Below are positions 2,172-61,013 of a stretch of 64,000 nucleotides of DNA, piece after piece. Every line of letters begins with the position of its first letter. Within the stretch, counting starts at the first letter, position 1. Origin of the DNA: Candidatus Sumerlaeia bacterium (GTDB lineage: Bacteria; Sumerlaeota; Sumerlaeia; JADFCW01); assembly GCA_026415575.1 (NCBI GenBank), contig JAOAGV010000001.1, positions 49,399 to 113,398 of the forward strand, written 5' to 3'. The translations under genes and the position numbers were made by a program. The notes below the pieces were generated by a model, which had not been told where the DNA came from, made no database searches, and saw only the letters and a list, made by a program, of their open reading frames with translations.

Positions 2172-3266
2172 CTAGCCGATGAAGTCGCGCGGGTCGGGTG
2201 GTTTGCGGGTTACGCGCGGTTGGTGGTCGGCGTCGGCGGGACGCTCAACCCCCGTACCTTCGCGCAAGATAATCTCTTCGAGTGTCATCTTCTTGGGGCG
2301 CGGGACAAAACCGGGTGCCATCGCATATTGCAAAAGCCGCTGCCGGAGCATTTGTAGATCAAAAGGCTTGGAAAAGAAATCATTGGCGCCCAAGCGCTTG
2401 CAATACTCGATGTCGCGCGGCGAACACTTGGCCGAAATAAATAGGATGGGCGTATTCCGGTAACTTTGATTCTGCCGCAAGGATGCACACAACTGGTAGC
2501 CGCTCATCTTGGGCAACATTGCATCGAGAATAATGAAGTCCGGCTGATAATTAATGATTCGCTCCACCGCGCTCAGACCGTCGGGCGCCGTCGTCACCTC
2601 GAAATCTTCGCGAAGAACCAGCGACAGCATGCTGCGCAAGTCCTCATCGTCCTCGACGATCATGACGCGCGGGCGCGTGGGGGCAACCGCACGCGGCGGC
2701 GGTGGAGGCGGGGACGGCGGCTCCGGCGTGGTGGCGGGCGCGGACGGCTGCGGTCCCGTTACCGGCCGGGAAACCGCCGGGCGGGGCGGCGCTGCCGGTT
2801 CGGCTTTGGGTGGCGCAACAGGAGAAATATCCCCGTGCGCCGCCCAGAATTTGGACAGCTGCTCGATGGTATAGCGTTTCGGCCGCACTCGCGCGCAGGC
2901 CCGCTCAAGTGCATACGCGATCGTTTTGACCAAACGATCCGGATCAAACGGCTTGGTCAGATATAGTGTCGCGCCCGCCTCGTACCCTTTCATAATTTCT
3001 TCTTTGGCCCGCTTGGCCGAAAGAAACAACACAGGGACAGCGTGCAATTGGGGATGCTTTCGGATGGCCTTGCAGGTCTGGAAACCATCCATCAGAGGCA
3101 TGATCACATCGAGGACAATGAAATCCGGCTCCGCCAGTTCGATCTTGTCGAGCGCATCCAACCCGTCATAGGCTTCGACCACTTCATAGGTAGGGCTGAG
3201 CGTGAGGCGCAAAAGCGTCCGGACGTCTTCTTCGTCATCCACTACCATGATGCGAAATTTGTTCAT
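2172..3266 (-). CDS. response regulator with two tandem receiver (REC) domains joined by a Pro/Ala-rich linker
   Basis: Two CheY-like modules (MVVDDEEDV...DFIVLDVIMPLMDG...LSAK and VMIVEDDEDL...DFIILDAMLPKMSG...ISAK). The start is moved to MNKFRIMVV (ATG at 3266), which has GGAGG 8 nt upstream. There is no output domain. Confidence 0.85.
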   Translation of the reverse strand: MNKFRIMVVDDEEDVRTLLRLTLSPTYEVVEAYDGLDALDKIELAEPDFIVLDVIMPLMDGFQTCKAIRKHPQLHAVPVLFLSAKRAKEEIMKGYEAGATLYLTKPFDPDRLVKTIAYALERACARVRPKRYTIEQLSKFWAAHGDISPVAPPKAEPAAPPRPAVSRPVTGPQPSAPATTPEPPSPPPPPPRAVAPTRPRVMIVEDDEDLRSMLSLVLREDFEVTTAPDGLSAVERIINYQPDFIILDAMLPKMSGYQLCASLRQNQSYRNTPILFISAKCSPRDIEYCKRLGANDFFSKPFDLQMLRQRLLQYAMAPGFVPRPKKMTLEEIILREGTGVERPADADHQPRVTRKPPDPRDFIG

Positions 3267-3537
3267 CGCCGTTGCCTCCTCTGTTGCAAAACATATCTGG
3301 CCTTTTGCACCGGATTTGTTTTGAAAACGCCGCCTTGCCTTGCAGAGCCAACTGATTTCCTGCCACAAGAAACCTTCGCCGTCCATAATTTTTCGCGTGC
3401 ATAAAAAGACCGGGAGATTTCAAAAAGAACCTCGCGCAAGGAGGCGGGTGCATCTCCCGAAATTGAGAGACACTTCCCGCGAGCGCAAGCAAGACCGCCG
3501 CGGGATGCCGGAATAATCCCCCTCGCACAGCGCCAAG

Positions 3538-3684
3538 GACTTTGGACTGCGGCAGCCATGTTGCCGCTTTGCTGAAATCGTCCGTCGTCAGACAAAGCGT
3601 TTGCACTGTGGAAAACCGCCCCGCTTGGCGGGGTTGATCTTGGCGAAAAAGAAAGCGGCAGCGCGGCTGCCGCAGTCCAAAGCG
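3538..3684. repeat. MITE-like palindromic element, copy 1 (about 146 bp, about 30-bp terminal inverted repeats)
   Basis: The left end TTTGGACTGCGGCAGCCATGTTGCCGCTTTG is matched at the right end by its reverse complement, AAAGCGGCAGCGCGGCTGCCGCAGTCCAAAGC. The internal part is conserved with copies at about 13.9 kb and 25.5 kb. The element lies in a 580-bp intergenic gap. Confidence 0.7.
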
Positions 3685-3849
3685 TACGCCGGAGCGGCAA
3701 CGGCGAATGTGCCCAAACCGCGTGTCAACGCATTACACCAACCTCAATAATCCTTGCCCCGATCTTCGACAAAGTACAGAAATAAACAGTGCATAAACAT
3801 TCGGCTGTCGCAATGGCAGCGCACATTCTTTCGCAGGGAGGAATTGACC

Positions 3850-4959
3850 ATGCCCGCAAATCCCACGGAACCGGTCAAAATCGGTATCATCGGTTCGCAG
3901 TTCGTCGCCGAAATTCATGCGGCGTCGTTCAAGGCCATTCCCGATGCGGCCGAACTTGTGGCTGTCGCCTCGCCCAGTGCAGGCCATGCCGAATCGCTGG
4001 CCGCCCGCTACGGCATTCCGCGTGTGTTTCGCGACTACCGCGACATGTTGTGCGAGGCCGACATCGAGATGGTGACCATCGCGGCGCCCAACCGGCTTCA
4101 CGCAGAAATGGCAATTGCCGCCGCCGAAGCCGGCAAGCATGTTGTTTGCGAGAAGCCCCTTTGCATGACACTTGAAGAAGCCGACCGCATGATCGAAACT
4201 TGCCGCGCCCGCGGCGTTCTTCTGCTCTATGCCGAGGAACTTTTCTTCACACCCAAATATGTCAAAGCCAAGGAGATGGCCGATCAGGGCGCTTTCGGAA
4301 AAATCTATCTGGTCAAGCAGAGCGAAAAACATTTCGGGCCGCACTCGCCGTGGTTCTGGGACGTCGAACAATCGGGCGGCGGCGTGTTTTTCGACATGGG
4401 CTGCCACGGCGTCGCGTTTGCCTGGTGGTTTCTGAACCGGCCGGCCATCCGCAGTGTGTTCTGCCAGATGGGAACCTATGTGCACGGCGACAAAACGCGC
4501 GGCGAGGATAATTCCATCTGCATTATCGAATTTGACGGCGGGGCGGTGGGGCTCATCGAGGACAGCTGGGCGCGCCGCGGCGGCATGGATGACTGCATCG
4601 AGGTCTATGGTGAAGGCGGTGTAACCTACGCCGACTTGATGATGGGCAATGCGCTGCCGACCTACAGCGAATACGGCTACGGCTATGCGGTCGAGAAAGC
4701 ACCGACCACACGCGGCTGGTCGTGGCCGGTCTTCGACGAACTCTGGAACTATGGTTTCCCGCAGGAGATGCGCCACTTTTGCCGCTGTGCGCACGGGATC
4801 GAAAAACCGTTGGTCACCGGCGAAGACGGCCGCGTGGTAATGGAAGCGTTGCTGGCCGGCTATCAATCGGCCGGCACGGGGCAAAAAGTGGCCCTGCCAT
4901 TCCGCCCGACAGGCGTGGCCAAACCGATTGACTTGTGGCGAAGTCCCGTGCGGGTTTGA
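3850..4959 (+). CDS. Gfo/Idh/MocA family NAD(P)-dependent oxidoreductase
   Basis: N-terminal Rossmann motif KIGIIGSQFVAEIHA, then EKPLCMTLEEADRM. The start is moved to MPANPTEP (ATG at 3850), which has AGGGAGG upstream. Confidence 0.85.
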   Translation: MPANPTEPVKIGIIGSQFVAEIHAASFKAIPDAAELVAVASPSAGHAESLAARYGIPRVFRDYRDMLCEADIEMVTIAAPNRLHAEMAIAAAEAGKHVVCEKPLCMTLEEADRMIETCRARGVLLLYAEELFFTPKYVKAKEMADQGAFGKIYLVKQSEKHFGPHSPWFWDVEQSGGGVFFDMGCHGVAFAWWFLNRPAIRSVFCQMGTYVHGDKTRGEDNSICIIEFDGGAVGLIEDSWARRGGMDDCIEVYGEGGVTYADLMMGNALPTYSEYGYGYAVEKAPTTRGWSWPVFDELWNYGFPQEMRHFCRCAHGIEKPLVTGEDGRVVMEALLAGYQSAGTGQKVALPFRPTGVAKPIDLWRSPVRV

Positions 4960-9932: not shown

Positions 9933-10976
9933 CTATTGGATCAATACTTCCCGCTTCCCCCTTTTCACCTCGCCGATCACAAACGGATTTTCGCCCGCCT
10001 TGTCGCAGATTTCAAGCGTTCGTTCGACAGAATCCGGCGGAACGATGGCGACCAGACCGATCCCCATGTTGAACGTGTGAAACATCTCGCTGTTCTTGAC
10101 CGGGCCTAATCGGGCCAGCTGGCGGAAGATGTTTGGCACGGGCCAGCGGGTGGAGTCAATTTCGACGCCGAGACCTTCAGGCAGAAGACGGCGGAGATTG
10201 TCGGGCAGCCCGCCGCCGGTGATGTGCGCAAGGGCATGCACGGGCACGCCTTCGCACAAGGCCAGTGCCGCGCGCGTATATATACGGGTGGGGCGCAAGA
10301 GAACGGCACTGAGAGGTTCGCTTTCGCCGTCGAGCGGCCCGTCGAGTTTCATCCGGCGTCGGCTGAACAAGATTTTGCGGGCCAGCGAGTAGCCGTTGCT
10401 GTGCAGGCCGCTGGAGGCCAAGCCGACGAGGACATCGCCTGCGGCAATCGCGCTCCCGTCGAGGATTTTCGACCGCTCGACCACGCCGACGCCAAATCCG
10501 GCAAGATCCAGATGCCCTTTGGCATAGAGGCCGGGCATTTCGGCGGTCTCGCCACCGAGCAGTGCACAGTCGGCCTGCCGGCAGCCTTCGAGAATGCCTT
10601 CGAGCACGGCGTTCCATTGCGCGCCTTGCAATTTGCCCGCCGCGTAGTAGTCGAGGAAAAACAGCGGCTTTGCTCCGCAGCAAATGATGTCGTTGACCAC
10701 CATGGCGACCAGATCAATGCCGATGGTGTTGAGCGTGCGGGCCTGGAGCGCAACCAGCAGTTTGGTTCCAACGCCGTCAGTCGAAGCGACGAGGCAGGGC
10801 TCGCGCCACGCGGAAAGGTCGAGCGGAAATACGCCGCTGAACAAGCCGATGCCGGGGACCCTCTGCGCGAGGCCGGCAATCAAGCGGTCTTGTTTTTCGA
10901 TGTTCACACCGGCTTGTTTGTAGGAGATTGTTCGGGTTGTTTTGGCCACGTTGTCCATCCTGTCGGTATTGTCCAT
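9933..10976 (-). CDS. purM: phosphoribosylformylglycinamidine cyclo-ligase (AIR synthetase)
   Basis: SYKQAGVNIE...GIGLFSGVF...VASTDGVGTKL...DLVAMVVNDIICCGAKPLFFLDY. Confidence 0.9.
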   Translation of the reverse strand: MDNTDRMDNVAKTTRTISYKQAGVNIEKQDRLIAGLAQRVPGIGLFSGVFPLDLSAWREPCLVASTDGVGTKLLVALQARTLNTIGIDLVAMVVNDIICCGAKPLFFLDYYAAGKLQGAQWNAVLEGILEGCRQADCALLGGETAEMPGLYAKGHLDLAGFGVGVVERSKILDGSAIAAGDVLVGLASSGLHSNGYSLARKILFSRRRMKLDGPLDGESEPLSAVLLRPTRIYTRAALALCEGVPVHALAHITGGGLPDNLRRLLPEGLGVEIDSTRWPVPNIFRQLARLGPVKNSEMFHTFNMGIGLVAIVPPDSVERTLEICDKAGENPFVIGEVKRGKREVLIQ

Positions 10977-12595: not shown

Positions 12596-13570
12596 TCACT
12601 TCTTTGCCGCGACGGCCTTGTCCTTGTCTTTTTTGGGCTCCAGCGCCTTGGCAATCTTCTCGATAATGCCGCGAACGACCTCGGCTTGGTCGCTTTCCAG
12701 CCCCAGAATCAGCAGACGGTCTTTCTGAAACACCAGAGTCTTTTTGCCATTCTTGGCCGTAAATGTATGCCACGGCGACTCGTTGGCTATCGAGGCCATG
12801 TCCTTTTTGACGGATTCTGTGAACTGCGCAAGCGCCTTGGCGCTGTCTTCGGGCGCAACATACCGGGCGACCAGAATGCCTTGCTCGCCGCCGGACAAAT
12901 CATAGCCGGCATAGACTGCTTCGGCTTTAGCCGGTTTGTTGGCATTGGCTTCGAGCAACAAAATGTTGTCGGTGCCCATGAACCAGATCTGATCGAGCGG
13001 ATGGCGGTCGTGGATGTAGAGAATACCGTTGGCGCGGAGTTTCTCCTTGGGCAGCGCGCGCACCAGTTCAGGCAGTGGATGTTGGCCCGGAATCTCTTGG
13101 GCGATGGTCTTGGCCACGGCAATCAGGTTTTCTTTCGCGGCGCCCTCTTCACCGACATCTTTCACTTCGATGCAATAAGAGCCGCGCCAGAGAACGACCA
13201 TGCCGGGCGAGTAGGAAGCCTCGTCGGGGATGGCAATGATCTCGCCATCGCGCTGGCGCAAGGCCGAATACAAGCCGTAGGCGTTGTCGGAATTGCTGAG
13301 GCGATAGACGGCGACCTCGAACTCCTGTTTGCCCTTGGTCAGTTTCATGTGCTCGGAATCCACATAGGCAAAGCCCATGTGAATGTCGGCGAAACCGTCA
13401 ATGAGGTCGTAGAGTTTTTCGCCGACGACTTTCTGGATGTCGCCCTGACGCACCCAGTCGGTGATTTGGACTTTGGCAAGCGAGAACGGAACCGGGTCGG
13501 CGGCGCGGCTGGGGGCGCCGGCTGCAAGTAAGCCCATAGCCAGACTGGCGGTTGCAATCCATCGTTTCAT
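12596..13570 (-). CDS. secreted hypothetical protein, paralog of 46327..47235
   Basis: Signal peptide MKRWIATASLAMGLLAAGAPSRA. It shares ordered motifs with the 46327 lipoprotein (LYDLIDGFA/LFEAIDGMA; GILVARYVAPE...AKALAQF/DVLVARYKVGE...QKALEAF). Confidence 0.6.
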   Translation of the reverse strand: MKRWIATASLAMGLLAAGAPSRAADPVPFSLAKVQITDWVRQGDIQKVVGEKLYDLIDGFADIHMGFAYVDSEHMKLTKGKQEFEVAVYRLSNSDNAYGLYSALRQRDGEIIAIPDEASYSPGMVVLWRGSYCIEVKDVGEEGAAKENLIAVAKTIAQEIPGQHPLPELVRALPKEKLRANGILYIHDRHPLDQIWFMGTDNILLLEANANKPAKAEAVYAGYDLSGGEQGILVARYVAPEDSAKALAQFTESVKKDMASIANESPWHTFTAKNGKKTLVFQKDRLLILGLESDQAEVVRGIIEKIAKALEPKKDKDKAVAAKK

Positions 13571-13800
13571 TTTCTTTGCCTCCTGAAGCAGTGTTCACCG
13601 AAACGAAACTGTATCGGGACAAGCCCCTCGGCGTCAATAAAAGTTGGCGGGGATGAGCCGAAATCTGATTGCGGATTGCGGGGGGCTTCTCACAAAATCG
13701 GCAAAAGGTCGTTCGATCATGCTGTGGTTTTTTGACTGGAACAGCCAAAGGGGAAAGGCCTCGACCGCGCCCTTGTCATTATACACAAATCGGCCTCTGC

Positions 13801-14046
13801 TTTGGACTGCGGCAGCCACGCTCCCGCTTTTTCCCTTTGGACTGCGGGAGCCATGCTCCTGCTTTTTCTTTTACCAAACTCAACCCCCTGCCGGCAATCT
13901 GCTTTGGACTGCGGCAGCCACGCTGCCACTTTCTTTTGTGCCAAGTTCAAACCCGCCAAGCGTCGGTTTTCCCTTCAGTAACGACGCTTTGTCTGACAAT
14001 GGGCGCTTCCAGCAAAGCGGTAGCAGGCTGCCCGCATTCCAAAGCC
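13801..14046. repeat. MITE-like element cluster: one full inverted copy (about 13901..14046) plus two extra terminal-repeat half-copies (13801, 13835)
   Basis: TTTGGACTGCGGCAGCCACGCT occurs three times. The reverse complement of 13901..14046 aligns along its whole length to copy 1 at 3538..3684. Confidence 0.65.
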
Positions 14047-14379
14047 CATGGAGGGATTTTGTCGGGATCAGGCGTCGGTCTTGCTTGCGCTCGCAGAAAG
14101 TGTCTCCTGATTTCGGGTGATGCACCAAAGCGCAAAGGCAGCGCGAAATAATCGTCATTCGCCTTATCTATTAGAGCGTTGCATTTGCGCCCTAAAGGGC
14201 CGGAAAGGGTTTTCCGACCTATGGCTTGGGGCCAAGTCAGCTTGCCCTTTCTCTTCAAAAAGATTGCCCGCAGCAAAAAATGCGGCGTCTTCTCTTTGCA
14301 CATTCTTTTTGCGTGTGGCCAAAGGCCACGGTAGAAAGTCCGGTCAGGTGTTCGCGAAACTCTTGCAGGAGAATCTACA

Positions 14380-15009
14380 ATGCGAATTCTGGACATTTCC
14401 GTTCCTCTGCGCGACGGCATGGTGGTCTGGCCGGGCGACGTGCCGTTTCGGCGGCATCAGACCGTCTCGATGGCCTGCGGCAACGACTATAATCTTTCAG
14501 CCATCACCACCAGCGTGCACGCCGGCACGCACATGGATGCACCGCGACACTTCATCGCAGGCGGTGCCACGGTGGAACAGCTGGACTTGTCGCCGTTTGT
14601 GGGGCCGTGCCGCGTGGTCGAGATCGCCAATCCTCTTGCAATTGATCTGGGTGACATCGAGCGCCTCGATCTCAAGGGAGTCGAGCGGCTGCTGTTTAAG
14701 ACGCAAAACTCCGCGCTGTATGAGCGGCCGGAGTTTGTCGAGAATTACGTGGGGCTGGCGCCCGACGCCGCGCGGCATCTGGCGAAGATCGAGACGCTGA
14801 AACTGGTGGGTGTGGACTACTACTCGATTGCGCCGTTTGGCAGCGCGGCCGTGCCGGTTCACGAGGCGATTCTGGGCCGCGGCATCGTGGCGCTCGAAGG
14901 GATTAACCTGCGCGAGGTCGAACCGGGGGATTACGAGCTGATTGCCCTGCCGCTGCGAATCGAAGGGAGCGACGGCTCGCCCGTCCGTGCGGTGCTGATC
15001 CAGAGATGA
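14380..15009 (+). CDS. cyclase-family protein (kynurenine formamidase-like)
   Basis: ILDISVPL...SVHAGTHMDAPRHF...GVDYYSIAP matches the putative cyclase signature with the HxGTHxDxPxH metal site. Confidence 0.8.
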   Translation: MRILDISVPLRDGMVVWPGDVPFRRHQTVSMACGNDYNLSAITTSVHAGTHMDAPRHFIAGGATVEQLDLSPFVGPCRVVEIANPLAIDLGDIERLDLKGVERLLFKTQNSALYERPEFVENYVGLAPDAARHLAKIETLKLVGVDYYSIAPFGSAAVPVHEAILGRGIVALEGINLREVEPGDYELIALPLRIEGSDGSPVRAVLIQR

Positions 15010-18820: not shown

Positions 18821-18908
18821 GGAGGGGTGGTCGAGTGGCTAATGGCACGGGGCTGTAAACCCCGCGAGCGAGAGCTCTACGGAGGTTCGAATCCTCCCCC
18901 CTCCACCA
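18821..18908 (+). tRNA. tRNA-Tyr (anticodon GTA), with long variable arm and encoded CCA
   Basis: GGAGGGG acceptor stem pairs with CCCCTCC. Anticodon loop CTGTAAA. T-arm GGAGGTTCGAATCCTCC. 3-prime ACCA. Confidence 0.85.
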
Positions 18909-24404: not shown

Positions 24405-25451
24405 ATGCAACCCATGACCCACTCGCAATGGAACACCCTGCTGGCAGTACTCCGCGGCGAACTTCTCTCGCCCCCTCCCGTCGCGTTCATCATGGACAGT
24501 CCGTGGTTACCCAACTGGGCGGGCATGACCCTGCTCGACTACTTCAGCAGCGAGGAGCAATGGTTTGAGGCGAACCTCAAAGCGATGACAGAATTCCCCG
24601 AAGCCATTTTTCTGCCCGGCTTTTGGGCGGAGTTTGGCATGTGCACCGAGCCGTCGGCCTTCGGCGCCAAGTGCGTGTTCCCGGAAAACGAATTCCCGCA
24701 CGCCGCCAAGATCATCCAGTCGGTCGAGGACATTGACCGCCTCAGCCCGCCCAACCCGAAAACCGACGGCCTGCTGCCGCTTGTGATCAAGCGTCTGCAA
24801 CACTACCGGCCGCGAATCGAGGCGGCGGGGCATTCCATCCGGTTTGCGGTTTCACGCGGCCCGCTCAACGTCGCCTCGTTTCTCATGGGCATTACGGAAT
24901 TCCTGATGGAGATCAAATGCAATCCGGAGAGGATTCATCAGCTGTTGCGCCTGACGACGGTTTTCATTGCAGACTGGATTGCCTATCAGCGCGAGTGCTT
25001 CCCGACTATTGACGGTGTGCTTCTGCTCGATGACATCGTGGGGTTTCTCGGCGAAGAGGATTTCAAGGAATTCGGCCTGCCCTATCTGAAGGAACTCTAT
25101 GCAAAGTCCGGCGTCTCAGTCCGGTTTTTTCACAACGACGCCCCCTGCCGCAGTTCGGCTCCCTATCTGCACGAAGCGGGGATCAATCTTTACAACATGG
25201 GAATCGAGTCCGCGCTGGGCGATGTGCGCGATTGGGTGGGCCCCGAAGTGACATTGATGGGCAACATTCCGCCGAGGGATGTGCTGGCCGCCGGCACCCC
25301 GCGCGACGTGGCCGATGCCGTTGGCCGTCAATACGCCTCCCTGCCCGACCGCCGCCGTGTTCTTTTCTCCTGCGGCGGGGGGTTGCCGCCCGGAGTCTCC
25401 ACCGAAAACCTTCGCGCATTTCTGTCGGCCGTCGCAAAGGCGGGCGCGTGA
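24405..25451 (+). CDS. uroporphyrinogen decarboxylase (URO-D) family protein (MtaA/HemE-like fold; likely not HemE itself)
   Basis: Length and motifs (FIMDSPW, GFLGEEDFKEFGLPYLKEL, FFHNDAPCRS) fit the URO-D/methyltransferase family. The genomic context is sugar catabolism. Confidence 0.65.
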   Translation: MQPMTHSQWNTLLAVLRGELLSPPPVAFIMDSPWLPNWAGMTLLDYFSSEEQWFEANLKAMTEFPEAIFLPGFWAEFGMCTEPSAFGAKCVFPENEFPHAAKIIQSVEDIDRLSPPNPKTDGLLPLVIKRLQHYRPRIEAAGHSIRFAVSRGPLNVASFLMGITEFLMEIKCNPERIHQLLRLTTVFIADWIAYQRECFPTIDGVLLLDDIVGFLGEEDFKEFGLPYLKELYAKSGVSVRFFHNDAPCRSSAPYLHEAGINLYNMGIESALGDVRDWVGPEVTLMGNIPPRDVLAAGTPRDVADAVGRQYASLPDRRRVLFSCGGGLPPGVSTENLRAFLSAVAKAGA

Positions 25452-25512
25452 TTCCCGTCAAAGACCCGACTTGGGCAGGACGAACGAAAAAAGTTTTATC
25501 CCTGATTGAGGT

Positions 25513-25656
25513 TTTGGACTGCGGCAGCCATGCTGCCGCTTTGCTGAAATCGTTTGTTGTCAGGCGAAGCGTCGGCGCTGAGGAAAGAACCCGCGCTTGG
25601 CGGGTTTGAATTTAGCACGAAAGAAAGCGGCAGCATGTCTGCCGCAATCCAAAGCG
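25513..25656. repeat. MITE-like palindromic element, copy 3
   Basis: TTTGGACTGCGGCAGCCATGCTGCCGCTTTGCTGAAATCG...CGCGCTTGGCGGGTTTGAA...AAAGCGGCAGCATGTCTGCCGCAATCCAAAGC is collinear with copy 1. Confidence 0.65.
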
Positions 25657-25825
25657 GCCGACGATTTGTGCATAATGACAAGGGCGCGGCCTCAGGCCCT
25701 TTCCTTTTCGCATCTCCAGCCGAAATAAGGCCAAAGCATGCTCGAACGACCTTCTCCCGATTTTGGGAGATGCTCCCTCCTTGGCCTTTGCAAGAGATTG
25801 GCTGTGAAAGAATTCAGAGAAACGC

Positions 25826-27202
25826 CTAACTTTCACACTCTTTCGAGTGCTCTCGCCACAGGCCTTTTCGTTTTTCGCGCGCCTCGGCTTCGTATTGCTC
25901 GAAACGCTTGCGGTGGCGGTAGGGGTGCGAGCGGTCGGCGCGGGCATAGCCGTCGCGGATCATGCGCGCGTTAAGAAACTTTTTGTTGCTCAGGTGGACG
26001 TAGGCGGGACCAGAAGCGCCGTCGGCGAGCGGCCCGTGGTCGTTGCTGAGTTCAAGCCCGCTGCTGCGAACCATGCGCTCAAGATGTTCGATTGCCAGTT
26101 CCTGCGCGCGAGATTTGCTTTCGACAGAAGGCCACGGGGCGACGCCGAGCAGCGTGATGGTGCGTCCATCGCGCAGCAACAGTTCGGCAGGACTCAGGAC
26201 GGTTTTCAGTTGAGCCTTTTTCTTCGGGAATTGCTGTTTCACCGTGACGCGTGTCCCATACGAGTTTTCCCGCGGATCCACAGCGCGGCGAATTTGCACA
26301 CTACCGCTTGCGGCTGCGGGGCCTGCGCTCCAGCGCCGGATACGTTCCTCGAAATCTTCGGGCGAGGCGGACCGCTCGATGAACTCAAGGTTCGGCAGCC
26401 CGATCGCGTTGAACAATTCGCCGCCCTCGCGCATCCGATTCTCGATGGTTGCGCGGAATTCCGGGTTGATCTCGTAGCCCACAGAATTGCGGCCGAGTCG
26501 GTGCGCCGCCAGCGAGGTCGTCCCGCTGCCGAGAAAGGGATCGAGCACGGTTTCACCGGCAAAGGTGAACATGCGAATGAGCCGGCGCGGCAGTTCGAGC
26601 GGAAAGGCGGCCGGATGCTCTCCCTGACGGACGCCGCTGAAATTCCAGTGGCCGTAAAAATACTCGTTCCACTCCTCAGTCGTCAGGCGCGCGGCTTCTT
26701 TGGCGGCAAGCGAGGGCGGAGGGGGCGCCTTGCCGGGTTTTTTGAAAATCACGATGAACTCATAGTCAATCTTGATGATGCCATTGCGCGGAAACGGAAA
26801 GGAACCCATGATTGCCGCGCCGCCCGACGTATTGCATGTGGTAACCTTTTGCCAGATGATTGCGCCCATATAGTCGAGACCGAGTTTTTTTTCGCAAAAG
26901 CCGACAATTTCCTCGCGGATGGGAATTACTTTGTAGCGTCCATAGTGGGCGGCGCGGGCGAACTGGTCGCCGATGTTGACGCACAGCCGGCAGCCGTCGT
27001 GGAGCACGCGCGCACATTCTTCCCACACCAGATTCAGATTGTTGATGTAGGCGCGATAGTCATCGTGAAAGCCGATCTGGTCCGCCGCGCCGTAATCTTT
27101 GATCTGCCAATAGGGCGGCGAAGTGACGACCAGATGAACGCTCCGGTCGGGCAGTTCCGGCATCGCGCGGGAATCGGCAAAGATGATTTTGTGCGTGGAC
27201 AT
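25826..27202 (-). CDS. DNA methyltransferase (beta-class, SPPY motif: probable N4-cytosine MTase) fused to a C-terminal SNase-like (thermonuclease-fold) domain
   Basis: Motif IV TSPPYW precedes motif I DPFLGSGTT, which is the beta permutation. The C-terminal 150 aa (TVLSPAELLLRDGRTITLLGVAPWPS...GPAYVHLSNKKFLNARMIRDGYA...EAEAREKRKGLWR) aligns to staphylococcal nuclease topology. The canonical VDTPE metal site reads VAPWP. Confidence 0.8.
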   Translation of the reverse strand: MSTHKIIFADSRAMPELPDRSVHLVVTSPPYWQIKDYGAADQIGFHDDYRAYINNLNLVWEECARVLHDGCRLCVNIGDQFARAAHYGRYKVIPIREEIVGFCEKKLGLDYMGAIIWQKVTTCNTSGGAAIMGSFPFPRNGIIKIDYEFIVIFKKPGKAPPPPSLAAKEAARLTTEEWNEYFYGHWNFSGVRQGEHPAAFPLELPRRLIRMFTFAGETVLDPFLGSGTTSLAAHRLGRNSVGYEINPEFRATIENRMREGGELFNAIGLPNLEFIERSASPEDFEERIRRWSAGPAAASGSVQIRRAVDPRENSYGTRVTVKQQFPKKKAQLKTVLSPAELLLRDGRTITLLGVAPWPSVESKSRAQELAIEHLERMVRSSGLELSNDHGPLADGASGPAYVHLSNKKFLNARMIRDGYARADRSHPYRHRKRFEQYEAEAREKRKGLWREHSKECES

Positions 27203-28427: not shown

Positions 28428-28640
28428 CTAAGAAACGTAAGGCGTGCAAAAAGATAGGTGGAAAACGGCCGCAAAACACGGGACCTGTCCGTCTGCTCGG
28501 CTCTTTTTTTCTCTTGAACGCTTTTCTGTCCCTGCGCCAGCATAGCGGCCTCGAACGCGGGATTCGGCCGGGGGGCGGATTTCCCGTTCTAAGGCCCGAT
28601 GGAACAAAGGGCCATCGTGTCCAGAAAGGAGGTGATCCGA

Positions 28641-29240
28641 ATGCGAAAAGGTTTTACCCTGATTGAGCTGTTGATCGTGGTGGCCATCATCGCTATCCTT
28701 GCGGCGATTGCCATTCCGAACTTTCTCGAAGCGCAAACGCGGTCGAAGGTCTCCAGAGCCATGGCGGATATGCGCACACTGGCCACAGCGCTCGAATGCT
28801 ACGCCGTGGACCAGAACGGCGATTATCCATTCGACCTCGACAGCCGCGGATGGCCGTGGTATATCACCGATGTCCTATCTACGCCAATTACTTATGTAAC
28901 CAATGCGGCCTCGCTTCACGATCCGTTTCGGATGCATTTGAATCAGAACGATGCCAGCTGGCGCTTTCGGTATGTGAACTATCGCGCCAACTACGGCAGC
29001 AAACCGTGGCCGCCGTGCTGGTGTCCGGGGCCTTATTACACGCGATGGGTTGCCAGCACGCCCGACAGCACGGTTGACCAAGGTATCGAACAATGGGGAT
29101 TGTGGAAGCTCAGTTCGGCTGGACCCGACCGGACGGCCAATTCGAGTTTTTTCGTGGGCGATTTGGTCTATGATCCGACCAACGGAACAATTTCCGGCGG
29201 CGATGTCATCCGCTCGCAAAAGACCGGTCAGCGGAAGTAA
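28641..29240 (+). CDS. prepilin-type N-terminal cleavage/methylation domain protein (pseudopilin-like)
   Basis: MRKGFTLIELLIVVAIIAILAAIAIPNF is the class III signal peptide and methylation motif. RBS AAAGGAGGTG. Confidence 0.8.
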   Translation: MRKGFTLIELLIVVAIIAILAAIAIPNFLEAQTRSKVSRAMADMRTLATALECYAVDQNGDYPFDLDSRGWPWYITDVLSTPITYVTNAASLHDPFRMHLNQNDASWRFRYVNYRANYGSKPWPPCWCPGPYYTRWVASTPDSTVDQGIEQWGLWKLSSAGPDRTANSSFFVGDLVYDPTNGTISGGDVIRSQKTGQRK

Positions 29241-30714: not shown

Positions 30715-30862
30715 AGCAGGATGCGGTCGGGGTGGAACCCGACCCTCCAAGGTGGGTTTTTCTCCAGCGTCTGAAGTTAAAACAGGATACTACAGGGCAT
30801 ATTACACGGTGCTGGCAGGCCATACGGTCGGGGTGGAACCCGACCCTCCACGGATGGGTGCC
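30715..30862. repeat. pair of direct REP-like hairpin repeats (CGGTCGGGGTGGAACCCGACCCTCCA), about 100 bp apart
   Basis: Two near-identical 35-40 bp units at about 30721 and 30823. Each contains an imperfect GTCGGGG/CCCGAC palindrome. They lie in an intergenic region after the oxidoreductase. Confidence 0.5.
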
Positions 30863-40127: not shown

Positions 40128-40293
40128 GCGCGCAAGACATCACCGGAGTGCGGGCGGTTGGTGGTTCCCACTTTTGCGGGTAGGCGCAATTCCCACCTCT
40201 TTCCGGATAACGGCAACCTGAAAGAGACCCACGAAGGCGCGAACGGCAAACCGCCCGCACTCCCAACTTATTTGGGAGAGACAAACAACGATC

Positions 40294-57282: not shown

Positions 57283-60200
57283 ATGCGTCGGCGAGTGGCG
57301 GGATGGTTTGTTGTTGCCCTATTGCTGGTGCGATTGGCACAGGGCAATATGAGCATTCCAAACCCTTCCTTCGAGGACGGCACCACTGCACCGTTGGGCT
57401 GGCGGCTTTCCGGCGGTGTCGGCCAATGGGAGAACGAAGGCCGCACCGGCGGGCGCTGCGTCAGCGTGACGGGCGATCGCAAGTCGTCGAACTTCTGGTC
57501 GTGCCCGGTGCCCTTTGAGCCCGGCAAAATCTACAAAGTTGAGTTCTGGACCAAATCGTCGCCCGACGCCGCGGGCGGCAACGTGATTGCCGCCGGCAGC
57601 CTCTGCAACTTCGACTTCCCTCATGCGCGCGAGTGGACCCGCCGCTCGATGGTCTTCCGCGTCCCCGACCGCTCCGACCGGCCGGTGCTTCGGCTGGGCC
57701 ACTGGCAGGCAAAAGGGAAGGTGTGGTTTGATGATGTCAAAGTTGCCGAAGTGCGTGCGGTTGAGGCCAATTTTCTGGAGCCGCCGGGTTTCCGCATTCC
57801 GCTCGCGGAAGGCGAACAACTTTCACGCACACAGTATGTGTTTGTTGCGCCCTTGAAACAGCGGATGAACTGGGCGCGGCCTTTGATGGCATGTAGTGCC
57901 GGATTCAACTCCAACCGTTGGCTTCTGGACGACGATGCCGAGATTGTTTTTCGCCATGACGGGATCTCGGCCGTATCGCGGGATAATCCCGATGATGTCA
58001 CGCAGTCACCGCTCATCCACAAGCGTGTCGAGGTGGACGTGGGCTACCATGTGAGCGGCCGTTGCGCGGTCGAGGCAAGTTCGGACGGAAAAGATTGGAC
58101 GCTCTTGGGCACACTGGAAGGCGTGAAGACCGCGGAGTTCCCCCTGCCCAAGAGCCTGGATGCGGCCGCGCATGTTTGGATTCGATTATCGGGCAGGAGG
58201 AACGACGGCGATAACCGACCGTGCTCGATGCAGATTCATGGCTACCGCTTTTCCGCTACTCTTGCCGGCCTCGATCTGGAATCTCGCCGCAAATCCATTG
58301 ATTCTGCCTTGGCTCCATTTCCGCAAAGGGAACACTCTCCCACACGGACAGGGGCTACGTTTATTGTGCAGGAATCGCGCCATTGGCCGGAGCAGGATGC
58401 TGCAGGCAAAGCCGCCCCTCCCGGCCGTCTTGTCCATGTGGGAGCGCCAGTACTTGGAGGGCGCAATCCCGTGGACTTCTTGATTAACACATCCCGATAC
58501 CGATTCGTCGCGATCCTGTCCGTTGATGGCAAAGAGCAGACCTATCCTAGCCCCAAGGATGTTGCGTATGACGCCGGGCGGCCGGGCGAGCATCAAGCCA
58601 AAGTTGTGCTCCTCGATGCGGCCACCAGCAAGCCCTTATACGAAGCCTCGTGGGACTATCGTATCCCGTCCTTGTATGATTCCGGTTTCGGATACGCGGT
58701 TCAATCGGGCGAGAATTGCGACCTGTGGTGGGCTGAAGCGCCCTACAAGATCAGCCGGCAATGTCCCCCGCCCCAAGCGCATCAGCCGATCGCCATTTCT
58801 GCGGCAAAAGGCGAGTATGAGCCGTTTCAATTGATTCTTTCGCCCAAGCGCAACCTGATGCGCGTGTCCGTCAAGGTGTTGGCACTGCAATCGGACAAGG
58901 GCGCAAAGATTCCCGCCGATGCAATCACCGTCTGCCGCGTCGGCTATGTTTTTGTCTCGTCTCCGACCGACGAAATCGGCTGTGCGGGCGACTGGCCCGA
59001 TCCGCTGCCGCCGTGCGACAAGCCGTTCGATCTGCGCGCCAGCGACGGCAATCAGCCACTGTGGATCACGGTCCGCGTCCCGCGCGATGCGGCGGCGGGC
59101 GATTATCGCGGCGCGATTGAACTTTCGGCCGAAGGCGGATGGAAGGCGTCGGTGCCCTTTACGCTTCACGTCTGGGACTTCGAGATACCCCGTGAAAATC
59201 ATCTCAAAACGGCCTTCGGGTTTTCGACCGGCAATGTGAGGCGTTATCATAATCTCAAAACGGAAGAAGAATGGCGGCAGGTGGTTGACCTTTATTTCAA
59301 AAACTTCGCCGAGCACCGAATCTCCCCCTACGACTTCGCGCCGTTTGATCCGATTGAGGTGCGCTTTCCCGAAGACCCAAGCGGCACGGTCAAACTCGAT
59401 TTCACGCGGTTCGACCGCCAAGCCGAAAAGTATCTCGGCCCCGACTACAGATTTACGACCTTTCGCTTGCCCCTTTCGGGTATGGGCGGCGGGACGTTTC
59501 ATTCACGCCAAACGGGCCGCATCGGCCGCTTCGAACAGGGGTCGCCCGAATACGAACGCCTCTTTGCCAGCTACGTGAAACAACTCGAATCGCACCTGCG
59601 CGAAAAAGGCTGGCTCGACAAGGCGTATATCTATTGGTTCGACGAACCGAATCCGAAGGACTACGAATTTGTTCGCAACGGTATGGAGCGCATTCATCGT
59701 GCCGCGCCCGGACTGCGCCGCATGTTGACCGAGCAGCCGGAAAAAGAATTGGACGGCGCCGTGGACATCTGGTGTCCGCTCACGCCGCACGTAACGCCCG
59801 AACTGGTGGCGCGCGAGGCCGAAAAAGGACGCGAAATGTGGTGGTATATCTGCACCGGCCCCAAAGGCCCCTATTGCACGCTGTTCATTGACCATCCGGC
59901 CATTGAGTTTCGCATGTGGTCGTGGCAGACGTGGAAGACCGGCGTGAAAGGACTGCTCATCTGGCAGAGCAATTACTGGACCAGCGACGCCGCCTATCCG
60001 CCGCCGCAATTTCAGAATCCGTGGGAAGACCCAATGTCCTATGTGAGCGGCTACGGCACTCCGCGCGGGACAAAAAAACACTGGGGCAACGGCGACGGCC
60101 GTTTCCTCTATCCGCCCAATCGCGATCCGATGAACGACAAGAGCACGTATCTCACGGGGCCGGTCAACTCCATCCGCTGGGAAATGCTGCGCGAGGGAAT

Positions 60201-60630
60201 CGAGGATTACGAATATTTCTGGCTCCTGCGCGATCTGCTTGAAAAAAGCCGCACAACCGTCCCGCCTGCGAAAGAAAGTAGCACAACCATCCCGCCAGTG
60301 CCAGCAGGCCGCGCTGCCGTGATGGACCGCCGGCGGCCCGCCGGTGCTTTTGCTTCCTCCACCAGTACCCTTGGGACTTCCGACAGCCACGCTGCCGCTT
60401 TATCCAATCCGCGAAACTCAAAACCCGAAACCGACTCCTCAATCCAAAATCCAAAATCGAACATCCAAAATCCCCAACTCGCCCGCGCCCGGGAACTCCT
60501 TTCCATCCCCGACTCCATTACGCGCAACCAGACCCATTTCACCAAGGACCCGCTGGACCTCTATCGCTATCGGGAGGAAGTGGCAAAGGCGATTGAAGCC
60601 CTGATCCAGCAGGGATACACGGGCGATTGA
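57283..60630 (+). CDS. large secreted protein: N-terminal CBM-like domain + DUF4091 (GH123-like glycoside hydrolase-type) domain
   Basis: The N-terminal 330 aa parallel 56155..57162 motif by motif. The C-terminus has AYIYWFDEP and SIRWEMLREGIEDYEYFWLL, the DUF4091 hallmarks. Confidence 0.7.
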   Translation: MRRRVAGWFVVALLLVRLAQGNMSIPNPSFEDGTTAPLGWRLSGGVGQWENEGRTGGRCVSVTGDRKSSNFWSCPVPFEPGKIYKVEFWTKSSPDAAGGNVIAAGSLCNFDFPHAREWTRRSMVFRVPDRSDRPVLRLGHWQAKGKVWFDDVKVAEVRAVEANFLEPPGFRIPLAEGEQLSRTQYVFVAPLKQRMNWARPLMACSAGFNSNRWLLDDDAEIVFRHDGISAVSRDNPDDVTQSPLIHKRVEVDVGYHVSGRCAVEASSDGKDWTLLGTLEGVKTAEFPLPKSLDAAAHVWIRLSGRRNDGDNRPCSMQIHGYRFSATLAGLDLESRRKSIDSALAPFPQREHSPTRTGATFIVQESRHWPEQDAAGKAAPPGRLVHVGAPVLGGRNPVDFLINTSRYRFVAILSVDGKEQTYPSPKDVAYDAGRPGEHQAKVVLLDAATSKPLYEASWDYRIPSLYDSGFGYAVQSGENCDLWWAEAPYKISRQCPPPQAHQPIAISAAKGEYEPFQLILSPKRNLMRVSVKVLALQSDKGAKIPADAITVCRVGYVFVSSPTDEIGCAGDWPDPLPPCDKPFDLRASDGNQPLWITVRVPRDAAAGDYRGAIELSAEGGWKASVPFTLHVWDFEIPRENHLKTAFGFSTGNVRRYHNLKTEEEWRQVVDLYFKNFAEHRISPYDFAPFDPIEVRFPEDPSGTVKLDFTRFDRQAEKYLGPDYRFTTFRLPLSGMGGGTFHSRQTGRIGRFEQGSPEYERLFASYVKQLESHLREKGWLDKAYIYWFDEPNPKDYEFVRNGMERIHRAAPGLRRMLTEQPEKELDGAVDIWCPLTPHVTPELVAREAEKGREMWWYICTGPKGPYCTLFIDHPAIEFRMWSWQTWKTGVKGLLIWQSNYWTSDAAYPPPQFQNPWEDPMSYVSGYGTPRGTKKHWGNGDGRFLYPPNRDPMNDKSTYLTGPVNSIRWEMLREGIEDYEYFWLLRDLLEKSRTTVPPAKESSTTIPPVPAGRAAVMDRRRPAGAFASSTSTLGTSDSHAAALSNPRNSKPETDSSIQNPKSNIQNPQLARARELLSIPDSITRNQTHFTKDPLDLYRYREEVAKAIEALIQQGYTGD

Positions 60631-61013
60631 CGGTTTAATCACACCGCAATACACAAATACCAACCTAAAGCGGAAGTCCGACCACCGACCGACCAAATCT
60701 TCTATAATGGCATTGCCATAATACGGGAGTACCATCTATGCACGGGCGCGATTTTGCGGCCCTTTGCATTTACATCGCTCGGCGCAGATGCTCGAGCGCA
60801 GAGTAATGTTCCCCGCGAGGTCACAGGCAAAGCGGCAGCACGGCTGCCCACGGTCCAAAGTGAAAAAGAAGTTGCCGCCCTGCGCTATGCCCTTTATGTT
60901 TGCGGCCAGTGATTGGAAAAGGTGCGCGGCAGGAGAGTCGCGCCGAGGGACTTGCTGTATTCCTGTGCCTCTGTGGTGAAAAAAACTCTGATCGAAGGGA
61001 GAAAAAAGTCGTT

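Follow-up and report, generated by a model that had tools for sequence, protein, structure and literature searches.

Palindromic 31-nt repeats form REPIN-like doublets in a Candidatus Sumerlaeia contig and flank RAYT-like transposase genes in other phyla

What kind of element is the palindromic sequence of roughly 146 bp that recurs between genes in this DNA? We analysed a window of 64,000 nucleotides from a Candidatus Sumerlaeia contig, in which a sequence-only reading had proposed a novel MITE-like element at three intergenic loci. Repeat search of the window and a three-way alignment confirmed three copies at the proposed positions and in the proposed orientations, aligning from end to end (3540-3682, 25512-25654 and, inverted, 13902-14046). 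Direct repeats at 3541-3691 and 25513-25663 are 81 % identical, and the inverted matches of 3533-3683 and 25510-25655 to 13901-14051 reach 77-78 %, giving an overall identity of 77-81 % (n = 3 copies). Identity amounts to 74-94 % in the arms, 73-75 % in the 81-nt interior and 21-43 % in the 20-nt flanks. Since arms and interior are similar and the flanks are not, the ends are sharp and the copies are homologous over their full length. The boundaries read (C/T)TTTGGA... on one side and ...TCCAAAG(C) on the other; similarity ends exactly at ...CAGTCCAAAG, the sequence past this point has background composition, and outside the three copies similarity drops to background.

As had been proposed, the two ends of a copy are reverse complements (3540-3570 and 3652-3682, 31 nt, 90 %; 25513-25542 and 25624-25653, 30 nt, 93 %), and the expected internal GC hairpin was located in copy 1. 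The open reading frames across the copies are mechanical, given that the flanking genes begin and end outside them, in agreement with the suggested lack of coding capacity. Each copy is predicted to fold into one long hairpin. For whole copies the RNA minimum free energy ranged from -67 to -89 kcal/mol (z -3.9 to -10.3), the predicted RNA folds being very stable on both strands, and the DNA folds from -39 to -48 kcal/mol (z -4.5 to -6.7).

What is repeated is a half-site of 31 nt, AAAG-GCGGCAGC-nnn-GCTGCCGC-AGTCCAAAG, the core of which is a self-complementary hairpin. It consists of a conserved 5' AAAG, an 8-bp GC stem closed by a 3-nt loop, and a conserved unpaired tail, AGTCCAAAG; half-sites are oriented here as AAAG-hairpin-AGTCCAAAG and are called REP, in anticipation of the relationship discussed below. 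As single-stranded DNA, one arm folds with -11 kcal/mol (z -4.6). A 28-nt arm pattern with up to 3 mismatches matched seven times in the window, compared with 0.00 times in 100 shuffles. An nhmmer profile made from the half-sites retrieved ten and no more from the window; each has E below 1e-8, and the match ranked after them has E = 0.8. The three doublets initially recognised are therefore real, but the count of three loci fell short: the ten half-sites occupy four loci, two in each copy, two more in tandem with copy 3, and a degenerate pair farther downstream (Table 1).

Table 1. Positions of REP units and adjoining repeat modules in the window.
Feature	Position	Strand	Details
Copy 1, left REP half-site	3540-3570	-	+ strand = CTTTGGACTGCGGCAGCCATGTTGCCGCTTT; nhmmer E = 1.3e-12
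Copy 1, interior spacer, 81 nt	3571-3651	+	GC hairpin 3616-3631; 73-74 % to interiors of copies 2 and 3
Copy 1, right REP half-site, AAAGCGGCAGCGCGGCTGCCGCAGTCCAAAG	3652-3682	+	- strand: hairpin then TTTCTTTTT
Copy 2, full doublet	25512-25654	+	half-sites 25512-25542 (-) and 25624-25654 (+)
Copy 3, full doublet, opposite in orientation to copies 1 and 2	13902-14046	-	half-sites 13902-13932 (-) and 14015-14046 (+)
Truncated right half, REP 13835-13865 plus about 22 nt of interior	13835-13887	-	nhmmer, repeat search
Solo REP half-site, in tandem with the 13835 unit and copy 3, spacing 35 and 67 nt	13800-13830	-	nhmmer
Degenerate REP half-site in C-terminal tail of GH123-like ORF 57283-60630	60370-60401	-	nhmmer
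Degenerate REP half-site, partner of 60370-60401, 427 nt apart	60829-60860	+	nhmmer
Flank module A, 74 nt, beside left arm of copy 1, towards response-regulator gene	3447-3520	-	82 % to 14053-14126
Flank module A, second copy, beside copy 3, towards cyclase gene	14053-14126	+	repeat search
Flank module B, about 120 nt, beside right arm of copy 2	25657-25777	+	begins TTGTGCATAAT
Flank module B, second copy, beside REP cluster of copy 3	13681-13799	-	repeat search

In the three window doublets the tails point outward, and 9 of the 10 half-sites lie outside genes. In the unit at 13835 the stem has changed on both sides in a compensatory way (GGAGC/GCTCC), and an indel is present in the second half-site of copy 3 (14015-14046). 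All units have the unpaired tag GACT with the longer tail CTTTGGACT (AGTCCAAAG on the opposite strand); a GTAG or CGTC tag at the unit end is absent from every one of them. The half-site at 60370-60401 lies in frame in the GH123-like protein, where it encodes ...LGTSDSHAAAL..., and the Pfam domain of that protein ends at residue 980 of 1115. It is possible that this is an intragenic REP insertion, or that the ORF has been over-extended through intergenic DNA.

A classical MITE would be a deletion derivative of an insertion sequence with a DDE transposase, moved via its 30-bp terminal inverted repeats. The length of about 146 bp, the inverted termini, the intergenic positions, the several copies and the non-coding character are all those of such an element. 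However, a target-site duplication, sought at all three copies, was found at none (flanks GGA...CGT, GGT...CGG and GGG...CAG), and the supposed terminal repeat proved to be a self-complementary unit in its own right, which also occurs alone and in arrays with periods of 35, 42 and 67 nt. The MITE-like label does not fit these features, and the comparison with other genomes described below bears on it further.

The surroundings of the copies are varied. Copy 1 separates two divergent genes, for a response regulator (-; start at 3266, as implied by the annotated 364-aa product; 100 % identical to MCX8035476.1 of Candidatus Sumerlaeia) and for a GFO/IDH/MocA oxidoreductase (3754-4959, +). Copy 3 and the extra units beside it are again bordered by divergent genes, one for a DUF6599 protein (12596-13570, -) and one for a cyclase (14380-15009, +), and copy 2 lies between converging genes for URO-D (24405-25451, +; stop at 25451) and a DNA methylase (25826-27202, -; 3' end at 25826). 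The methylase has a C-terminal SNase domain, and just before the copy 2 doublet a remnant resembling a prepilin N-terminus (25481-25516) is similar to 28638-28673. Two further modules, A and B, each occur twice in the window, every time directly adjoining REP units. At its start module B has TTGTG(C/T)ATAAT, a sequence similar to an extended -10 box. No Rfam match was found for either module, and their folds were not better than those of shuffled sequences in both copies. The overall picture is of doublets and modules forming a mosaic, as in enterobacterial BIMEs.

The stable folds on both strands, the compensatory stem changes and the extended -10-like start of module B beside two of the copies could suggest that we are dealing with structured small-RNA genes or cis-regulatory RNA elements. 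Searched against Rfam at the gathering threshold, the whole window yielded a tRNA only (18821-18905, +; RF00005, 55.8 bits), and a permissive scan of 13600-14400 (E up to 10) found nothing better than E = 6; the element thus matches no known RNA gene. Moreover, the copies take both orientations relative to the neighbouring genes, their interior is not conserved between genomes, modules A and B fold no better than shuffles in both copies, and a perfect 30-bp inverted-repeat duplex, of the same stability on either strand, is what DNA palindromes would be expected to give. The earlier suggestion of a source of small RNAs found no support, and we consider an RNA family the least probable of the explanations weighed here.

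A function for the host deserves more attention. Palindromes that serve as bidirectional terminators, as stabilisers of mRNA 3' ends or as protein-binding sites could have been dispersed incidentally, by recombination or duplication. On the inner face of the right arm the GC hairpin is followed by TTTCTTT(T)T, and a terminator scan picks this up in all three copies; in copy 2 it lies about 180 nt behind the methylase stop in the correct orientation. The arms are conserved better than the interior, and secondary roles are documented for enterobacterial REPs (background in PMC3733652). Of the terminator role suggested earlier, what stands is its possibility for this one copy in three, as copies 1 and 3 lie between divergent genes, where a terminator is not needed. 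Termination also leaves the conserved unpaired tail AGTCCAAAG and the 5' AAAG unexplained, and it is whole units of 143-146 bp, with homologous interiors, that recur at unrelated loci.

Scanning for the exact 18-mer GGCTGCCGCAGTCCAAAG, with one genome per species, returned at least 105 loci. The full hairpin is present in about 95 of the 105 listed, and about 10 (e.g. in Pseudomonas and Burkholderiaceae) contain the 18-mer only and look like chance matches. Full-hairpin loci among those listed belong to Planctomycetota, Verrucomicrobiota (including an isolate, Brevifollis gellanilyticus NBRC 108608), Sumerlaeota DG2.163 (17 loci) and a few others. The genome-wide dispersed family anticipated from the window is accordingly supported, and in fact extends over several phyla. 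Doublets with outward tails occur at least 50 times (48 in the listed loci, 2 in the window), with lengths of 79-251 bp and a median of about 144 bp; DG2.163 also contains dimers with inward tails.

Among the listed loci, the REP is almost invariant across phyla, with 30-31 nt of the form AAAGCGGCAGC-AG/ATG-GCTGCCGCAGTCCAAAG. The window and the other genomes have only this half-site of about 31 nt in common, the interiors being genome-specific. The loop is CTG or CCTG in Planctomycetota and Verrucomicrobiota, and of the CATG type in the window and DG2.163. Doublets of Planctomycetota and Verrucomicrobiota often contain two extra inner hairpins (L004, L009, L015 and others), the stems of which are unlike on the left and right sides and share the core CAGCCTGCTG / CAGCAGGCTG. 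Stem variants occur in matched pairs: GCTACAGC/GCTGTAGC (L117), GCTGCAGC/GCTGCAGC, GCGGTAGC/GCTACCGC and the GGAGC/GCTCC of the window. In a tally of stem cells changed on both sides, 60 were paired and 16 unpaired, with a loose pattern that also catches inner hairpins; owing to this looseness we rely only on the clear, named stem variants.

In chromosome CP070680.1 (labelled WOR-3 bin69; L006, L024, L037, L040, L046 and L084) the 18-mer belongs to another composite that recurs there, ...GCAATGACGCGGGCGTGGGGGCTGCCGCAGTCCAAAG, and a second unit, GAAGCGGCAGC..GCTGCCGCAGTC, often comes after it. This appears to be a distinct repeat that uses the same tail.

Two comparisons with relatives bear on the history of individual copies. 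L114 encodes a response regulator with 88 % identity, and the 290 nt available upstream of its gene contain neither module A nor the doublet. In DG2.163 (L125), nucleotide identity is 85.7 % over the URO-D gene and synteny is lost right after its stop; no REP was found at the corresponding position (window 25453-27202 versus L125 1244-1700). Absence at both sites indicates that the doublets are variable between relatives. A clean pre-insertion site was sought in L114 and L125, and neither gives one; the region behind URO-D (25453-27202) may be an inserted or rearranged segment.

The ORFs of the 105 listed loci were clustered all against all, without prior expectation. This brought out a protein of about 190 aa bracketed by REP in 5 of the 105, a frequency far above chance for 8-kb loci ascertained by the motif. 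Three further homologues, picked by protein similarity alone (L117, L118 and L119), proved to be REP-flanked as well, so that REPs stand beside the gene in all eight loci examined (with L001, L004, L057, L059 and L044, the last from Brevifollis gellanilyticus NBRC 108608), in two phyla. At L004 the gene (2535-3110) lies between one doublet at 2347-2524 and another at 3115-3291. In the 20.6 kb of L117 the only doublets are the two that border the gene to its left and right, both with the stem variant GCTACAGC/GCTGTAGC. At L118 doublets flank the gene on both sides, and all 13 half-sites in 20.6 kb lie between called genes. At L119 the gene is followed by a doublet and by six REP units repeated in tandem every 42 bp (array at 10689-10925).

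Several lines of comparison point to a RAYT-like protein. Two of the proteins scored 79.2 and 74.5 bits with the NCBIfam model NF047646, 'REP-associated tyrosine transposase', for which the cut-off is 80, and one of the two passed Pfam Y1_Tnp (28.5 bits versus a cut-off of 23). Residues 26-162 matched E. coli TnpA-REP (PDB 4ER8) with E = 9e-5, the HUH and tyrosine motifs being in register, and an IS200 model gave 16.5 bits versus a cut-off of 55. The HUH (SNHYH) and tyrosine (YVHQN) motifs are invariant in 122 homologues. The protein family comprises 4,570 clusters at E <= 1e-10, and the RAYTs of Planctomycetota and Verrucomicrobiota are 62-72 % identical.

Neither tblastn nor a profile HMM built from 122 sequences detected a RAYT in the window (64 kb) or in DG2.163 (Sumerlaeota, about 110 kb searched); applied to the window and all loci, the two methods found RAYTs in the eight non-Sumerlaeota loci only. 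A plasmid search gave no close RAYT (best 29 % identity). A search for vectors of horizontal spread found 5 motif matches in viral contigs, and a metagenome scan for the CATG-loop variant produced 8 short matches, none with a RAYT.

The gene content bears on these alternatives. No DDE transposase bracketed by the arms emerged from the ORF clustering of the 105 listed loci, where the only protein-coding gene so placed is that of the Y1/HUH transposase, and the 31-nt arm stays constant between genomes while the interiors are wholly different. A classical MITE is, in our judgement, highly improbable. For a host function, the near-invariance of the REP across phyla could be explained by a host factor of fixed specificity; against this, the RAYT gene is flanked by REP at 8 of 8 loci, some of them with no other REP nearby. 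We regard a host function as the primary explanation as unlikely. The elements may plausibly serve secondarily as terminators or stabilisers, for example as a terminator behind the methylase gene.

Our favoured reading is that the copies are REP doublets of the REPIN-like, non-autonomous kind, and that a RAYT most likely spread them as whole units. Two inverted 31-nt REPs enclose a spacer of about 81 nt, and on single-stranded DNA the element could form both the arm hairpins and one long hairpin. A RAYT, as a Y1/HUH enzyme of the IS200/IS605 superfamily, would recognise the hairpin together with its unpaired tail on single-stranded DNA, cut with its catalytic tyrosine and rejoin the element elsewhere without target duplication, by analogy with IS200/IS605 TnpA and E. 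coli TnpA-REP. Such an enzyme presumably acts, or once acted, on the window copies in the Sumerlaeia genome; where in the element it would cut is a guess based on the same analogy. Against a RAYT-driven origin stands the absence of a RAYT for the CATG-loop Sumerlaeota variant from the searched window and DG2.163 sequence. The REP also has no GTAG or CGTC tag, and the RAYT-like protein falls just under the NCBIfam cut-off.

Active REPIN populations usually consist of many near-identical copies. No such population was seen in the window, where the three doublets are 77-81 % identical, and from this limited identity they may be old relics. The data suggest old insertions in which the arms have been kept better than the interior.

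The family resembles the REPINs of Pseudomonas fluorescens SBW25 and other Gammaproteobacteria (Bertels & Rainey 2011, PMC3116915; PMC3337134; PMC5581495), in which inverted REPs and a spacer make up a long hairpin that is copied as a unit. As in SBW25, the units are extragenic, singlets and clusters exist besides doublets, target duplications are absent, and a Y1/HUH transposase gene is flanked by its own REPs. In contrast to SBW25, the REP has another sequence without a GTAG head, the hosts are Sumerlaeota, Planctomycetota and Verrucomicrobiota, the doublets of the latter two often contain two inner hairpins with the CAGCCTGCTG core, divergence is evident among the window copies, and the 64-kb window contains no RAYT. 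Moreover, the 31-nt REP hardly varies across phyla, whereas those REPINs that have been described are lineage-specific and reportedly inherited vertically; REPIN-RAYT systems are characterised in these terms in PMC5581495.

Alternating orientations and a mosaic with short modules, here A and B, are shared with the E. coli REP/BIME system and its TnpA-REP (RayT; PDB 4ER8, PMC3479197). The protein similarity is remote, however (E = 9e-5), and the REP of E. coli differs in its stem and in having a GTAG head. Biochemical work has established binding and cleavage by E. coli TnpA-REP (PMC3479197), and for the present family we infer them. The GTAG and CGTC REP superfamilies and the TIRYT/TIRtron elements (Di Nocera et al. 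2013, PMC3733652) are tagged stem-loops with stems of 6-9 bp. Those superfamilies likewise form head-to-head or tail-to-tail dimers with spacers of 20-100 bp, occasionally insert in frame into genes, and are present in the PVC group (Planctomycetes, Verrucomicrobia, Chlamydiae). In contrast, the tag GACT with the tail CTTTGGACT / AGTCCAAAG fits neither consensus. With IS200/IS605 and their palindrome-associated miniature derivatives the family shares its logic: a Y1 HUH transposase reads subterminal hairpins on single-stranded DNA, and neither terminal inverted-repeat chemistry nor target duplication is involved. It differs in that the RAYT profile gives 79 bits and the IS200 model 16.5 bits (cut-off 55), and in that the hairpin is far more widely spread than the gene. 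Two other kinds of repeat were set aside: integron attC sites, for lack of GTTRRRY ends and of a cassette array, and CRISPR, for lack of a regular array.

A REP family with this 31-nt half-site appears to be undescribed. Neither the motif nor its hypothetical translation products gave a match in a full-text literature search. For RAYTs or REPINs in these phyla, the literature search found only the general REP survey PMC3733652, the text of which does not contain this sequence. The claim of novelty accordingly holds at the level of the family, but not for the kind of element, since REPs and REPINs are already known.

The label thus moves from a novel MITE to a REP/REPIN family, and with it comes a specific and testable mechanism, the action of a Y1/HUH enzyme on single-stranded DNA hairpins. 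The range of REP-RAYT systems is widened to Sumerlaeota and to many uncultured Planctomycetota and Verrucomicrobiota. For annotators, the 31-nt signature offers an explanation of the spurious ORFs and the contig breaks that recur in these MAGs. The near-invariant REP, together with RAYTs that are 62-72 % identical between Planctomycetota and Verrucomicrobiota, may reflect one REP-RAYT lineage distributed over at least three phyla, Planctomycetota, Verrucomicrobiota and Sumerlaeota, a view that we advance tentatively. If correct, it would imply either horizontal spread of REPIN-RAYT between phyla or an exceptionally constrained pair of enzyme and hairpin, contrary to the published picture of lineage-specific, vertical REPINs centred on Gammaproteobacteria. 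The near-identity of the REP across phyla is a concrete case for asking whether REPIN-RAYT systems are strictly vertical or mobile between distant hosts, and the compensatory stem variants that occur with their own RAYT (L117) are ready material for work on specificity.

Two other palindromic sequences were observed in the window. A separate 119-bp inverted-repeat element at 40145-40263 lies between co-directional genes, occurs once in the window and has 37-nt arms, GGAGTGCGGGCGGTT... and ...AACCGCCCGCACTCC, that are 78 % identical; it may belong to another REP-like or terminator hairpin family. At 30721-30752 and 30822-30853, two intergenic 32-nt units, ATRCGGTCGGGGTGGAACCCGACCCTCCAMGG, are 94 % identical and 101 nt apart. 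Each holds a GGTCGGG/CCCGACC hairpin, and the two represent a second small palindromic repeat family.
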